Shown here: positions 2,364-49,147 of the stretch, in pieces | Layout of the letters: each line of letters starts with the position of its first letter | Numbering within the stretch: position 1 is the stretch's first letter | Source of the DNA: Escherichia coli | GTDB taxonomy: Bacteria; Pseudomonadota; Gammaproteobacteria; Enterobacterales; Enterobacteriaceae | Length of the DNA: 64,000 nt | Assembly (NCBI RefSeq): GCF_044324785.1 | Contig: NZ_CP172127.1 | Direction: 5' to 3' (one strand) | Notes under the pieces: model-generated | What the model was told of the DNA's origin: nothing | Databases searched by the model: none | Seen by the model: the letters and a program-made list of their open reading frames with translations, nothing else | Translations under genes and position numbers: made by a program

Positions 2364-3023
2364 TTACGCTGCGGTCGGTTGGCGTAGCGGTATGGCACAA
2401 ACGCGAGGATTAGCGGCCAGTGGCACAAACTGGCGGGTTGCGCCGTCAAAAGCTGCGATGCTGCCGCTTTCAATGTCGTAGACCCAGCCGTGCAGGGCGA
2501 TCCGCCCCTCTTCGAGCGCCAGGCGCACCGATGGATGAGTTTGCAAATTAGCCAACTGAGCAATGACGTTTTCACGTACCATCGCCGCAGCTTTTGACGG
2601 TAAATCGGGAAGCGGGCGCGCCTCATTAACGACGCGGGCTGAATCGGCATAACGCAGCCAGTGGGAGACGGCAGGCATATGGTCCATGCACTGACAGCTG
2701 GCAATGGCGGTCATCGCGCCACAGTTGGAATGACCGCAAATCACAATGTCAGATACCCGAAGCGCAGCGACGGCATACTCCACCGAAGCAGAAACGCCAC
2801 CGGGTTCCGGCCCGTAGGAAGGGACGATATTGCCCGCGTTGCGAATAACGAACAGATCGCCAGGCTCACGTTGCGTCACCAGCTCAGGGACCAGACGGCT
2901 GTCGGAGCAGGAGATAAAAAGGGTGCGCGGGCTTTGCTGTGTCGCCAGCTGTTTAAACAAGGCTTCCCGCTTCGGAAATGCCTCGCGCTGGAATTTAAGG
3001 AATCCATCAATAATCTCTTTCAC
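2364..3023 (-). CDS. cynT: beta-class carbonic anhydrase
   Basis: 219-aa ORF matching CynT (CSDSR and HxxCG zinc-ligand motifs present). Confidence 0.95.
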
Positions 3024-3073
3024 CGTTAACCTCTGTCTGTCTCTGGAATGAGAGGCAGACTACTCGCCGATTG

Positions 3074-3099
3074 TCATAAGGTAAAAGTCTCATTTATGA
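3074..3099. promoter_or_regulatory. dyad TCATAA-N14-TTATGA in cynR/cynT divergent intergenic region; candidate LysR-type (CynR) site
   Basis: Inverted hexamers read in sequence between divergent cynR and cynTSX; LysR regulators typically bind T-N11-A-like dyads upstream of the divergent target. Confidence 0.25.
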
Positions 3100-3132
3100 T
3101 GAGTTCTATTGGATTTACTTATAGGTTGGCGA

Positions 3133-4032
3133 ATGCTCTCTCGACATATCAATTATTTTCTTGCCGTGGCTGAACATGGCAGCTTCACCCGTGCAGCCAG
3201 TGCGTTGCACGTCTCCCAGCCAGCACTTTCCCAGCAGATTCGCCAGTTAGAGGAGAGTTTAGGCGTGCCGCTGTTTGACCGTAGCGGGCGAACGATTCGT
3301 CTCACTGATGCAGGAGAAGTCTGGCGACAGTACGCCAGCCGGGCTTTACAGGAACTGGGGGCGGGTAAACGGGCGATTCATGATGTTGCCGATCTGACGC
3401 GAGGATCGCTGCGTATCGCCGTCACTCCCACCTTTACAAGCTACTTTATCGGCCCTTTAATGGCGGATTTCTATGCGCGCTACCCCGGCATCACGCTCCA
3501 GCTACAGGAAATGTCGCAGGAGAAAATCGAAGATCTGCTTTGCCGCGACGAGCTGGACGTTGGGATTGCCTTCGCGCCTGTGCATTCGCCGGAGCTGGAG
3601 GCAATTCCTTTACTGACAGAAAGTTTAGCTTTAGTCGTGGCGCAATATCATCCGCTGGCTGCCTGTGAACAGGTGGCGTTGAGTCGCTTGCATGATGAAA
3701 AACTGGTCCTGCTCAGCGCGGAATTTGCCACCAGAGAGCAAATTGACCACTACTGTGAGAAAGCGGGGCTACATCCACAGGTGGTCATTGAGGCGAACTC
3801 AATTAGCGCGGTTCTGGAGCTGATTCGCCGCACTTCCCTTTCCACATTGTTGCCAGCAGCGATTGCCACACAACATGACGGGCTTAAAGCTATATCCCTT
3901 GCCCCACCGTTACTGGAGAGAACGGCGGTTTTGTTGCGGCGGAAAAATAGCTGGCAGACAGCCGCCGCGAAGGCATTTTTACACATGGCGTTGGAGGAAT
4001 GTGCGGATGTTGGCGAGAATGAATCACGGTAG
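3133..4032 (+). CDS. cynR: LysR-family transcriptional regulator of cyn operon
   Basis: ORF 3109..4032 trimmed to ATG 3133 ([22 protein letters not shown]..., 299 aa); HTH at N-terminus; divergent from cynTSX. Confidence 0.93.
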
Positions 4033-4053
4033 CCACTGACACAGGTCAGTGGC
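4032..4053. terminator. bidirectional hairpin gccactgac-acag-gtcagtggc between cynR and codA
   Basis: Perfect 9-bp stem with 4-nt loop overlapping the cynR stop codon; convergent gene ends on both sides. Confidence 0.5.
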
Positions 4054-4071
4054 TCTTCAACGCAGAGGAAA

Positions 4072-5355
4072 TTACCGTTTGTAATCGATGGCTTCTGGCT
4101 GCTCCAGATATACGGTGGTTTGTGCTGGTTGGGTGCTGGCAATCACCTTACCGCCACGTACCGAATAGCGCACCGGAACCTGACGGCGCAGCGCATCAAA
4201 CCCATTTTCAGCCGGCAGGATAATCAGGTTGGCGCTGTTTCCGGCGGCAATGCCGTAATCCTGCAAATTCAACGTCCTGGCGCTATGGTGGGTGATTAAA
4301 TTCAGGCCGTCGTTAATCTGCCCGTAGCCCATCAACTGACAAACATGCAGCCCCATATGCAGCACTTGCAGCATATTCGCCGTTCCCAGTGGATACCACG
4401 GATCGAAGACATCATCGTGACCAAAGCAGACGTTAATGCCGGACTCCAGCATCTCTTTAACGCGCGTGATGCCGCGACGTTTTGGATAGGTATCGAAACG
4501 TCCTTGCAGATGAATATTGACCAGCGGGTTGGCGACAAAGTTAATACCGGACATTTTCAGCAAACGGAACAAGCGTGAGGTATACGCCCCGTTATAGGAG
4601 TGCATTGCCGTAGTGTGGCTAGCGGTGACTCGCGCGCCCATGCCTTCACGGTGCGCCAGGGCAGCAACGGTTTCGACAAAGCGCGACTGCTCGTCATCGA
4701 TCTCATCACAGTGAACGTCGATGAGACGGTCGTATTTTTGCGCCAGGGCGAAGGTTTTATGCAGCGACTCCACGCCGTATTCGCGGGTAAATTCAAAATG
4801 CGGAATCGCCCCCACTACGTCTGCCCCTAAGCGTAACGCCTCTTCCAGCAACGCTTCACCGTTGGGATACGACAAAATCCCTTCCTGCGGGAAGGCGACG
4901 ATTTGCAGATCAATCCACGGCGCGACTTCCTGCTTCACTTCCAGCATTGCTTTCAGCGCGGTCAGCGTTGCATCCGAAACATCGACATGGGTACGTACAT
5001 GCTGAATGCCGTTGGCAATCTGCCATTTCAGCGTTTGCCATGCGCGTTGTTTCACATCGTCATGGGTTAATAACGCTTTGCGCTCGGCCCAGCGTTCAAT
5101 GCCTTCGAACAGCGTGCCGGACTGATTCCAGTTCGGTTGTCCGGCGGTTTGCGTGGTGTCCAGGTGAATATGCGGCTCCACAAACGGCGGTAAAACTAAA
5201 CCTTGTTCGGCATCCAGGCTGTTTTCTGTTACGGGCATCACACCAGATTGCGTATCAATGGCGCTGATTTTTCCGTCGTGAAGATGAATCTGCCACAGCC
5301 CCTCTTTGCCGGGTAACCGGGCGTTAATAATTGTTTGTAAAGCGTTATTCGACAC
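4072..5355 (-). CDS. codA: cytosine deaminase
   Basis: ORF 4072..5370 matches CodA; start set to GTG at 5355 ([16 protein letters not shown]...), the known non-ATG start as I recall it. Confidence 0.94.
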
Positions 5356-6604
5356 TGTTAGCCTCCACATGCGTCATTGCTGCTGTCGTTTTACGATTCA
5401 AAATCGGGTTAAGGATCAGATAGCTCAGCGCGCCACCTAATACCGCGTTGACCGGAACAATTCCCGGTAACCAGTGGCCTGCGGCAATCCCCAGCGCGAC
5501 CGCCAGAATTGCCACCCAATTGACACTCATCATACGCGTGGTCGCAAAGTGCTCATAGCGGCGACGGTTCATCAGATAGTCAGCGATGATCACGCCCCCT
5601 ACCGGAGGAATAGCTGCCGAAAGGAAGGTCAGCCAGCCGACAAAATTGTTATACAGCCATAGTGCGCAGACCGTACCGATAATACCGTTGATTACCGAAA
5701 GGGTTTTGCTCGACATCCCGGTAATGTTGGCGAAACCTAAGCCCGACGCATAGAGCGCGTTATCGTTGGTGGTCCAGATATTCAGCCCCAGCACCACAAT
5801 CGCAGGCAGCAGCAGACCCTGAGCAATCATCACATCAGAGATATCCGCCATCCCCAGTGCCGCCGCGCCCGCTGCACCGAAAATAAACATCAACGAGTTG
5901 CCGAGGAAAAAGGCCACCATCGCCACCAGCACCGCCAGTTTGGCATTGCGACCAAACCGGACAAAGTCAGCGGTGAGCGTGCCCGCGCTGATAAATGACC
6001 CCACAACCAGCGCCAGTGCGACATTGAAATCTAACGGTTGTGCGGGAACGACCGCTTTTAATGCGTCCAGGCCGCCCATGCCATTAACAGCCAGCCACAC
6101 GGAATAACCGCCAAGGCAGGCGATAGCCGGAACCGCAATCACCGAAAGAACCGTCAGCGCCGAAATGCCAAAGAAGACGGTGACGGTCATCAGTAAACCG
6201 GAGACGGCAATCAGCAAATTAATATCCAGCCCGGTTGCCTTGCCCACCGGAATAGCAAACATCGCCACGCCAACGCCAAACCAGCCGACCTGAGTGCCGC
6301 CCAGCAGCAGTGAAGGCAGCCATGAGCCTTTAACACCAAACGAGAAGCGAGCAAGAAGATGAGTGGTCAGGCCGGTTTTTGCGCCAATGTAACCAAGAAA
6401 TGAAGTGTAAATACCGAGGAGAAGATTACCGATGAGGACTGCGAGGAAGAAATCATGATAGCTAAGACCGGTTCCGAGAGTGCCGCCGGTCCACATACTG
6501 GCGGAAAAGAAGGTTAATCCCAGCATGACGAACGTCAATGCCAATACCCCTTTCCGCGCCGACTGCGGGACTGGCCCCTGGCTAAAGTTGTTATCTTGCG
6601 ACAC
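5345..6604 (-). CDS. codB: cytosine permease
   Basis: 419-aa polytopic membrane protein matching CodB; 11-nt overlap with codA start indicates an operon. Confidence 0.95.
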
Positions 6605-6779: not shown

Positions 6780-6834
6780 GCGTCGCATCAGGCATCGGCG
6801 CATGGTGTCGGATGCGCCAGGCGACGCATCCGAC
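6780..6834. repeat. REP-like palindromic element / terminator immediately downstream of prpE
   Basis: Nested inverted repeats (ggcgcat/atgcgcc and gtcggatgcg/cgcatccgac) read in sequence; GC-rich REP-like composition. Confidence 0.5.
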
Positions 6835-6840
6835 AATAAC

Positions 6841-26030: not shown

Positions 26031-26202
26031 GCCTGATGCGCTACGCTTATCAGGCCTAGAATTCTCGTGCCATTCGTAGGCCGGATAAGGCGTTCACGCC
26101 GCATCCGGCAATGGTGACAAATGCCTGATGCGCTACGCTTATCAGGCCTACAGATTCTCGCGCCACTCGTAGGCCGGATAAGGCGTTCACGCCGCATCCG
26201 GC
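26031..26202. repeat. REP cluster (BIME): two tandem copies of an inverted REP pair
   Basis: gcctgatgcgctacgcttatcaggcctac and gtaggccggataaggcgttcacgccgcatccggca each occur twice (26031..26110 and 26123..26202). Confidence 0.88.
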
Positions 26203-26225
26203 AAAGACAACGCGCACTTTGCAGG

Positions 26226-27503
26226 TCAGACGCCGTAACGTTCGCACCAGCCAAGAATGGCTTTTTCGAAGCAGGCGAATGGTGGATGCACAATGCCCGC
26301 GCCAATCATGCCGATGCCCGCATCTTTATGAGCGATGGCGGTGTTGATCACTGGCAGAATGCCGCTACTGCCCACGCGGGTGATGTCGATTGCCGACGGC
26401 ACGCCCATAAAACCGAGCAGCGGAATGGTGACGTTGGGGTTTTCGCCGAGAGTGATTTCGCGCATCTGACGGGAGAAATCGATAGCTTCTTCCACCGTAC
26501 CGCCCACCAGCGCGACGATTGCAGGCGCGGTCGCCATAGCAAATCCGCCAATACCGTAGGTTTCGGTGATGGCACTGTCGCCAATATCCAATCCAGAATC
26601 TTCCGGCTTATAACCGGCAAACATCGGGCCGATCACCTGCTGCGCCGGACCGGAGAAGTAGTCGCTGCTGGCGACAAACTCAAACACTTCGCGCTGTTGC
26701 TCGACGGAATAGCCCGCCTGAATAATCCCCGGCGTCAGCGCCTGAATCAGCAACGTAGTCCCGGCGTTATTGCGGTTATGGCATTCATCGCCCATATGCA
26801 GCGCCTGCGCCAGCATCAAGCGCAGATCGATCTCGCCGATAATTTTCATTGCGTCACGCAGCATTGGCCCCTGCACATCGCGCATCCAGTTGAGGCGGTC
26901 AATCACGCTCTGGTCGTTAGCGCCCATACGCAAAATCTTCGCCATCTGCTCGCTCATGTTGGTATAAGCGATGTTGCCGTAGGTTTTGTTTTTTACGATG
27001 TGCATAAACATCGAGGCCGAGGTAACACCCGCCATCGATCCCACACAGTCGTGTTCGTGGCACGGCGAGAAGGTGATCTCCCCGGAGGCCGCCAGGTCAG
27101 CCGCCTCGTCGAGATCTTTCGCCAGTCCTTCGAACACCAGCGCTCCGGTGACCGCGCCTTTCATCGCGCCGCACATTTTTTCCCAGGTGATCGGCGGCCC
27201 GGCGTGAAGAATGGTTTTCGGCGTCATGCCCGGCACCACGTTAATCGCCTGATCAAAACCAATCAGCACCGGATGTGACTGAATAATGCGCTCCAGAGCC
27301 TGCTGATTAGCGGCGGCGATTTTGTCTGCCAGCGGCGAATCGGCAATGTTATCCAGCGCCTGCACCACCTGCATATTGCCCTGCCCCGGCGGCGTCCAGT
27401 CGAGTTGGGTCACTTCTACATGCTGCTTTTTCAGGTCATCGCTAAACATGGCGATGCCGACGTTAATAACGTTCAACGGTTGGCTAAACAGTGACTGGCT
27501 CAT
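26226..27503 (-). CDS. yahG: DUF1116 protein (YlbE-like)
   Basis: 425-aa ORF homologous in type to YlbE; start overlaps yahF stop by 1 nt. Confidence 0.85.
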   Translation of the reverse strand: MSQSLFSQPLNVINVGIAMFSDDLKKQHVEVTQLDWTPPGQGNMQVVQALDNIADSPLADKIAAANQQALERIIQSHPVLIGFDQAINVVPGMTPKTILHAGPPITWEKMCGAMKGAVTGALVFEGLAKDLDEAADLAASGEITFSPCHEHDCVGSMAGVTSASMFMHIVKNKTYGNIAYTNMSEQMAKILRMGANDQSVIDRLNWMRDVQGPMLRDAMKIIGEIDLRLMLAQALHMGDECHNRNNAGTTLLIQALTPGIIQAGYSVEQQREVFEFVASSDYFSGPAQQVIGPMFAGYKPEDSGLDIGDSAITETYGIGGFAMATAPAIVALVGGTVEEAIDFSRQMREITLGENPNVTIPLLGFMGVPSAIDITRVGSSGILPVINTAIAHKDAGIGMIGAGIVHPPFACFEKAILGWCERYGV

Positions 27504-48174: not shown

Positions 48175-48262
48175 ATATTACTGGAGATATGACAGAGTGA
48201 AGATCAATATCACTCCCCTGTTAAAAGATTCTTGTCGTCTCAGGTAAAATACATGATTAATA

Positions 48263-49147
48263 TCAATCATGTATTTTTACAGCAAGACAACCACGAACAA
48301 ATTCAGGATTAAAATGTTTTACCGACTCCCCAACATAACCCAAATCAAGCGAACTAATTTGTGCCATTTCTTTCTCTGTCAGTGAGAAATCCCAGATAGC
48401 AAAATTTTCTTCGATACGCTGTTGATGTGTCGATTTCGGAATAACGACCACTCCCCGTTGAATATTCCAACGCAGAATGACTTGAGAAATCGATTTTTGA
48501 TGGGCATCTGCAATACTCTGAAGCAGATTATTTTCAAAGGGTTTATGTCGTCCACCACCTAACGGAGCCCATGCTTCAGGCTGCACGTTATAATACTTCA
48601 TGGTTGCCAGCGCCTCTGGTTGGGCAAAATAGGGATGCAACTCGACCTGGTTGACCATCGGTTTAACTCTTACCGTTTCACAAAAGTTCGCCAGAACATG
48701 AGGATAGAAATTGGAAACCCCAATTGCTTTTAATTTGCCCTCTTCATAGGCATCTTCGAGTGCACGCCACGCACTGAAATAATCGCGCATAGCCTGGTGC
48801 AATAAATAGAGGTCGAAGTATTCTAGTCCCGATTTTTTTAATGACGCTTCAATACCTGCTTTTGCCGTATCCTGATTCAACATATCCTGCACCCACAATT
48901 TAGACGTTATAAATAACTCATCTCGGGTACATAAACCTTCAGATATAGCTTCACGAACGGCTTCACCGACGGCATCTTCATTACCGTATACCGCTGCAGT
49001 GTCGATGAGTCGATAACCCGTGCGGATAGCGTTCAACACTGACTGTTTGCACACGTTTTTATCGGTAACCTGAAAAACACCAAATCCCATCATCGGCATT
49101 TTCAGATTGTTACTTAATACGGAAAATTCCACTGTCAGTCCCTCCAT
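48263..49147 (-). CDS. aldo-keto reductase
   Basis: 294-aa ORF with AKR motifs ([20 protein letters not shown]); true start may be an internal Met (MPMMGFG...). Confidence 0.85.
   Translation of the reverse strand: MEGLTVEFSVLSNNLKMPMMGFGVFQVTDKNVCKQSVLNAIRTGYRLIDTAAVYGNEDAVGEAVREAISEGLCTRDELFITSKLWVQDMLNQDTAKAGIEASLKKSGLEYFDLYLLHQAMRDYFSAWRALEDAYEEGKLKAIGVSNFYPHVLANFCETVRVKPMVNQVELHPYFAQPEALATMKYYNVQPEAWAPLGGGRHKPFENNLLQSIADAHQKSISQVILRWNIQRGVVVIPKSTHQQRIEENFAIWDFSLTEKEMAQISSLDLGYVGESVKHFNPEFVRGCLAVKIHD

Follow-up and report, generated by a model that had tools for sequence, protein, structure and literature searches.

The cynR and codA genes of Escherichia coli converge, in the genome studied here, on a spacer of 39 bp, and a perfect palindrome runs into it from the stop codon of cynR. 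The window, by which we mean the whole 64-kb stretch of DNA that was analysed, is colinear with E. coli strain N3 (99.4% identical at the locus), running through lacA, cynXST, cynR, codAB, prpEDCB and onward, and RefSeq annotation of matching E. coli genomes bears out the gene names cynR and codA. ORF coordinates and annotation agree on the 39-bp gap between the convergent genes that an earlier note on this DNA had described. The features of the locus, with the source of each, are as follows.

3133..4032, plus strand: cynR, LysR-type regulator of the cyanate operon (ORF list; RefSeq annotation of strain N3)
4031..4054, both strands: perfect 10-bp inverted repeat, giving the same stem-loop in cynR-sense and codA-sense RNA (sequence, RNAfold, list of the window's perfect hairpins)
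4033..4071, between convergent cynR and codA: 39-bp intergenic spacer in its short form, without a BIME (sequence); other E. coli lineages have a REP pair (BIME) here, with or without tandem amplification
4054..4069, plus strand: weak 5-bp second stem (UCUUC-AACGCA-GAGGA), predicted in cynR-sense RNA only (MFE structure of 4025-4075)
4072..5355, minus strand: codA, cytosine/isoguanine deaminase (ORF list; RefSeq annotation)

Expression of cynR, an autoregulated regulator gene, is weak, and that of codBA depends on conditions. The start of codA is placed at an ATG at 5370 by the ORF list (432 aa) and at 5355 by RefSeq (427 aa), and both versions overlap the end of codB (stop 5345-5347). Over positions 3700-4400 the window is 96-97% identical to most E. 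coli genomes, and identity reaches 99% or more in just 3 of 5,234 matching records (best, N3, 99.4%); because close relatives are so few, and identity to most E. coli so low, this stretch would appear to belong to an uncommon lineage or to be a recombinant segment.

A perfect hairpin common to both transcripts

Positions 4032-4053 read gccactgac-acag-gtcagtggc, with 9-bp arms at 4032-4040 and 4045-4053, exactly as the earlier note had it, and the stem is in fact longer: A4031 pairs with T4054, which makes a perfect stem of 10 bp (4031-4040 with 4045-4054) around the loop ACAG at 4041-4044. The sequence of 4030-4055 is tagccactgacacaggtcagtggctc. The overlap with the cynR stop that had been noticed is likewise there, since the TAG at 4030-4032 enters the 5' arm, with its G inside the 9-bp arm and both A and G inside the 10-bp stem (an overlap of 1-2 nt). 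On the codA side the stop codon TAA occupies 4072-4074 (minus strand), and the hairpin begins 17 nt past it in codA-sense RNA.

Folding with RNAfold gives the hairpin 26-mer -17.7 kcal/mol on either strand (z = -5.86 and -5.84, with 0 of 200 shuffles as stable), so that it is equally stable in both transcripts. The 64-kb window has 8 perfect hairpins whose stem is at least 10 bp long and whose loop is 3-8 nt, where 100 dinucleotide shuffles average 0.44 +/- 0.62, an excess of about 18-fold, and the chance of such a perfect stem arising in this neighbourhood of about 60 nt is about 4e-4. Given z-scores near -5.8 and 8 perfect stems in the window against 0.44 in shuffles, the hairpin at 4031-4054 is a real, non-chance structure. 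Its sequence is single-copy, with a median of one place per genome, and in the short-form spacer it is the only strong structure present; the second stem at 4054-4069 is predicted, in cynR-sense RNA, to compete with the 10th pair of the main hairpin. An Rfam covariance-model scan of 3000-5000, with E up to 10, gave no match at the hairpin.

The window contains several other palindromes. At 1545-1570 a perfect 11-bp hairpin, AGTGCGCTGCT-AAGC-AGCAGCGCACT (-19.5 kcal/mol), lies within the coding region of cynX, away from the gene end; the closest genome, N3, has cynX annotated with a frameshift. Two related hairpins begin TGTCGGATGCGCC and end ATCCGACA. That at 607-636 stands in the convergent gap between lacA and cynX and has, on the cynX-sense strand, a tail rich in T (d = +23.6); that at 6806-6835 comes shortly after the prpE stop. 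These two look like a small REP-related family, judging from their sequences; the strict pattern GTAGGCC[GT]GAT detects neither. Between yahI and yahG, at 26076-26203, there are three canonical REPs (a BIME cluster). The annotation of strain N3 sets a 192-nt "hypothetical protein" CDS over them (26054-26245), probably a false gene call on REP sequence. Finally, directly after the rclC stop and facing a convergent aldo/keto reductase gene, 48243-48280 forms an AT-rich perfect 13-bp palindrome, AAAATACATGATT-AATATC-AATCATGTATTTT, whose flanking A and T runs belong to the stem itself.

The hairpin does not resemble an intrinsic terminator

An intrinsic terminator combines a stable, GC-containing stem-loop with a U-rich tract of about 7-9 nt, which for a bidirectional one must follow on each strand. 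The stem-loop is present at this locus, but the tails, UCUUCAACG on the plus strand and UACCGUGAUUC on the minus strand, form no U-tract on either, and there is no A-tract upstream of the hairpin on either side. A consensus terminator scan (stem plus T-run) left the hairpin uncalled on both strands. On a d'Aubenton-Carafa-type discriminant, the formula of which was checked on two controls, rrnB T1 (+14.6) and trpA t (+26.9), the hairpin scores -15 (9-bp stem) or -29 (10-bp stem) on the plus strand and -31 or -46 on the minus strand. Its T-scores, plus and minus, are 1.8 and 1.1 with the 9-bp stem and 1.0 and 0.2 with the 10-bp stem, versus 3.4-4.2 for the controls. The one call that the scan made nearby on the minus strand lies inside cynR, at 3966-3953, where codA-sense RNA has its sole T-run past the hairpin; we considered it as a codBA terminator and rejected it, its folding being no better than that of shuffles (z = -0.27).

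Position also matters: according to Li et al. (PMC4824070), a model intrinsic terminator set a few bp after a gene was almost fully repressed in vivo, owing to the trailing ribosome. On the cynR side, with TAG in the 5' arm, the hairpin is not clear of the terminating ribosome; on the codA side the distance is 17 nt.

True bidirectional intrinsic terminators do occur behind distant cynR orthologues, as at locus L040, which carries AAAAAGGGCC...GGCCCTTTTT, and likewise at L054, L057 and L069. The 3' contexts of the distant orthologues (80 loci among the matches listed, at most 72% protein identity) are unrelated and permit no nucleotide-level comparison. Closer to hand, the window has seven convergent gaps in its first 50 kb. 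The stem at cynR/codA ranks with the strongest in these gaps and is the sole perfect one, with a good tail on neither side; U-less or absent stems are the norm among these local gaps, because a good T-tail stem is found only at lacA/cynX, and there on one strand only (d = +23.6).

Variation of the spacer among E. coli genomes

We compared the spacer across 5,426 complete E. coli genomes, 5,231 of which gave a match of any kind and 4,139 of which have cynR and codA together. The polymorphism was read by setting window 4033-4071 against loci L001 (633-970), L002, L003, L086, L087, L088 and L089. The main forms are listed here.

Short 39-bp form, as in the window (IAI1, O26 and O111 types): perfect stem; about 1,700 genomes
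K-12 type: gccgctgac-acag-gtctgcggc, mismatched at one pair (T·T) and followed by tgga and a REP pair (BIME); about 1,663 genomes
O157:H7 type: cynR ends in TAA, the hairpin has its left arm (ccactgacaca) but no right arm, and the BIME follows directly; about 762 genomes
No cynR beside codA, lacA-BIME-codA: about 1,090 genomes (an estimate, 5,231 minus 4,139; one example read, L088)

The stem is invariant across the roughly 1,700 short-form genomes. One rare short-form genome, Z1323PEC0010 (L094), carries a second perfect stem, gccGctgac-acag-gtcagCggc, which differs by a double change from A·T to G·C. In the O157 type the loss of the right arm amounts to 14 nt and affects about 18% of cynR-bearing genomes. 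Altogether, the 5,426 genomes and 39 metagenome contigs yielded five sequences with four stem haplotypes; the metagenome scan added no new stem haplotype. Counted pair by pair over these four haplotypes, one pair has changed on both sides and two haplotypes each lose one pair, and a covariation test gave no significant signal (119 of 500 in the shuffle control).

No spacer form seen in E. coli is without a stable stem-loop between the two stops, be it the hairpin or REPs. The pattern of sequences suggests that the stem is kept where it is the only strong structure of the spacer and relaxed or truncated beside REP hairpins. Constraint on the hairpin's own stem would nonetheless seem to be weak, because about 18% of the cynR-bearing genomes do without the right arm.

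K-12-type genomes have 1, 2 or 3 copies of a unit of about 200 bp that takes in the final 84 bp of cynR along with the hairpin and the BIME, and the extra copies read gccgctgac-acag-atcagcggc. PGAP labels the repeated cynR fragments in the tandem units as partial "hypothetical protein" pseudogenes. The left edge of the amplified unit is agctggcagac inside cynR (window 3949-3960; L001 750, L003 750/950), and its right end, aaacta|agctcgctg, has AGCT-GC-G in common with the left edge; because both ends have this motif, the sequence suggests a microhomology-mediated duplication junction. BIME amplification that captures a cynR fragment, in the codA-cynR flank, has already been cited (Ton-Hoang et al. 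2012, PMC3333891). The strains without cyn genes in our sample agree with the reported absence of cynRTSX from phylogroup B2 (Touchon et al., PMC2617782).

Relation to REP elements

Is the hairpin simply a degenerate REP? We tried this identification and rejected it: an nhmmer REP profile picks up the two REPs that flank it in the K-12 form (E = 1e-14 and 6e-11) and does not find the hairpin, even with E up to 100 and filters off. REPs are multicopy, imperfect palindromes with a GTAG head followed by GCC[G/T]GAT..., and the hairpin has only the GTAG head in common with them. There is nevertheless a likeness to REP/BIME elements between convergent genes, which are extragenic palindromes of 3' UTRs and for which a role in two-way termination or in blocking decay has been put forward (PMC3333891; Harris et al. 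2026 preprint), and K-12- and O157-type strains have a BIME in this same spacer, beside the hairpin or in place of its right arm. GTAG precedes the stem as it does in REPs, but the hairpin is shorter, a perfect palindrome and single-copy.

Discussion

What might such a palindrome do? The reading that we favour, and to which we would give about an even chance of being right, is that it forms a U-less, very stable 3' stem-loop of the cynR and codBA mRNAs, an exonuclease barrier or pause site, with release by Rho downstream. The hairpin alone probably does not release RNA polymerase, which would pass it, perhaps after a pause, into the antisense strand of the opposite gene. The antisense read-through RNA is untranslated, so Rho could load on C-rich sequence there and terminate, after which PNPase and RNase II, moving 3' to 5', would trim the transcript back to the stem-loop and leave a defined, protected mature 3' end. 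Since the palindrome is perfect and sits in a 39-bp spacer, one element could serve both genes, and in lineages with an inserted REP pair the REP hairpins may take over, which would free the stem to decay or to lose an arm. Support comes also from the spacer forms of E. coli, each with a stable stem-loop, and from the two perfect stems, in which a pair changed on both sides with pairing kept, though covariation at one pair among four haplotypes is not significant. Pausing at the hairpin, the involvement of Rho and exonuclease trimming are inferred.

A class of such transcript ends was described by Dar & Sorek (2018, PMC6061677), who found that Rho-dependent E. coli transcripts end just past stable stem-loops with energies like those of intrinsic terminators. 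The stem-loops have neither U- nor A-tracts, C is enriched over G just downstream, and their main role is to stop PNPase and RNase II once termination has taken place farther downstream; the same work reports stable 3' stem-loops at nearly all E. coli mRNA ends and more Rho dependence among weakly expressed genes (PMC6061677). The cynR/codA hairpin likewise is a stable stem-loop without a U-tail or an A-tract just past a coding region, at the end of a transcription unit, and it resembles these elements in the C-over-G composition downstream on the codA-sense strand and in the weak expression of its genes. The differences are that a single palindrome here would serve two convergent mRNAs and overlaps one of the stops, and that a clear rut-like signal is found on one strand only. 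The tracts in question are these.

3953..4030, minus strand: C-rich, G-poor tract, candidate Rho-utilisation region, directly downstream of the hairpin in codA-sense RNA and antisense to the 3' end of cynR
4133..4210, plus strand: C>G tract 80-155 nt downstream of the hairpin in cynR-sense RNA, antisense to codA, C/G 1.65

On the minus strand, 4030-3953 has 36% C and 19% G (C/G 1.87) with 16 YC dimers, which places it at the 95th-97th percentile of 78-nt windows, and at about the 95th even among windows antisense to genes; C>G is somewhat expected anyway in RNA antisense to genes, where the mean C-G fraction is +0.027. On the cynR-sense strand the first 78 nt past the hairpin (4055-4132) are G-rich (C/G 0.65), so that the rut-like signal is one-sided. 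Among the published K-12 3' ends and Rho regions of Adams 2021 there are none at cynR/codA/codB, b0337/b0338 or coordinates 35698x-35701x, and the TERMITe supplements have no entry for cynR, codA, b0337 or b0338. A caution as to function comes from the Harris et al. 2026 preprint, in which terminal REPs had no global effect on half-life, so it should not be assumed that stems of this sort always stabilise mRNA.

A different division of labour is imaginable, in which the hairpin pauses polymerases arriving from both sides, they collide at a fixed place, and trailing polymerases dislodge them, which would give precise, overlapping 3' ends with neither a U-tract nor Rho. Work from the Liu laboratory (Wang et al. 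preprint) describes bidirectional terminators between convergent genes that are unlike intrinsic terminators and do not need Rho; a hairpin pauses the polymerases, head-on and trailing collisions bring about release, and efficiency is greater in highly expressed pairs. A hairpin present on both strands between convergent genes, and unlike an intrinsic terminator, is just what that description calls for, and a 2026 structural preprint has nascent hairpins positioning bidirectional termination sites. In the overlapping terminators such as ynaJ-uspE (Ju et al. 2019; Wang et al. 2022/2023), too, the hairpin lies between convergent genes, occurs in both transcripts and has a non-intrinsic look, but they depend on frequent head-on and trailing RNAP collisions and favour highly expressed pairs. 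For the mechanism to work, polymerases must often arrive from both sides at once, and it does better where expression is high. Weak expression of cynR and conditional expression of codBA speak against it, as do the K-12 data of Adams 2021 and TERMITe, which list no 3' ends at the locus, and the roughly 762 genomes that have no right arm. We regard this account as unlikely, if worth keeping in view, and prefer the protective stem-loop to it because of the C-rich tract in codA-sense RNA and the low or conditional expression of cynR and codBA.

It may also be that the palindrome has no selected function, being a mutational by-product that persists neutrally in some lineages, for example an inverted duplication, templated or by fold-back, of what follows the cynR stop, or a mark left by REP/BIME insertion, deletion and amplification at this spot. 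The spacer is certainly a structural hot-spot, found short, with the BIME once, twice or three times, with half a hairpin and a BIME, or as lacA-BIME-codA, and the capture of the codA-cynR flank by BIME amplification has its precedent (PMC3333891). Five sequences and four stem haplotypes are few for 5,426 genomes and 39 metagenome contigs, and the distant cynR orthologues (80 loci among the matches listed) have nothing in common here. Template switching at quasi-palindromes is a known mutational route, and the apparent compensatory change could come from it instead of from selection. Set against this, two distinct perfect 10-bp stems, together with invariance in about 1,700 short-form genomes, exceed what would be expected of a decaying scar, and the short form offers no other strong structure in the spacer, while stable 3' stem-loops are reported to be nearly universal at the ends of E. 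coli mRNAs (PMC6061677). Neutral persistence therefore strikes us as rather unlikely.

The earlier note had taken the hairpin for an efficient, compact bidirectional terminator, that is, an autonomous Rho-independent one that insulates each gene from antisense read-through. Part of this survives, in that the hairpin is shared by both mRNAs; efficient autonomous termination in both directions is improbable. In its favour are a strong GC-containing stem with a tetraloop at -17.7 kcal/mol on both strands, a plus-strand tail that begins U-C-U-U, a minimal proximal U content, and the suggestion that weak-U stems may be inefficient intrinsic terminators with Rho as a backup (Dar & Sorek, PMC6061677). 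A compact GC-containing stem-loop common to convergent genes is indeed what canonical bidirectional intrinsic terminators look like, but these have the A-tract and U-tract that the hairpin lacks. The scan was silent, d ranges from -15 to -46 against about +15 and +27 for the controls, and the cynR stop lies within the stem, a placement at which a terminator is reported to have been repressed in vivo (PMC4824070). The stem is halved or mismatched in most other E. coli lineages, and the real bidirectional terminators at distant cynR orthologues (L040, L054 and L069, in Pseudomonas and Chromobacterium, and also L057) look quite unlike it.

With its GTAG head, the palindrome at the cynR stop could in principle be a REP-like target of a REP-associated transposase (TnpA-REP/RAYT), an idea that we consider very improbable. 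If true, it would explain why the BIME joins at the 3' edge of the hairpin in the K-12 type or inside the loop in the O157 type, why every amplified 200-bp unit includes a copy of the hairpin, and why the spacer has at least five structural forms, and the hairpin would then seed local genome plasticity and would not be, or not only be, an RNA element. That the palindrome is instead a DNA-level operator for a dimeric protein is extremely unlikely, for although it is a perfect 10-4-10 palindrome and single-copy in the genome, it lies between two stop codons with no promoter-like site found nearby in a scan, and about 762 genomes have a half-site only. We know of no motif that matches the palindrome at 4031-4054; a LexA box, which is spaced CTG-N10-CAG, was considered and rejected on the spacing of the inner CTG-N8-CAG.

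To return to the protective 3' stem-loop, the hairpin is most likely an ordinary 3' element of a known kind in a known BIME hot-spot, with little import beyond annotation. For annotation, it means that when a perfect hairpin lies between convergent genes, the U-tracts and the distance to the stop codon should be checked before it is called a bidirectional terminator. For E. coli itself, the locus provides a natural allelic series within one species, comprising a perfect stem, a mismatched stem with a BIME, half a stem with a BIME, and tandem amplifications, and this series could be used to gauge the roles of a U-less stem-loop and of a REP pair in forming 3' ends, in the stability of the mRNAs and in read-through that enters cynR and codA in antisense.
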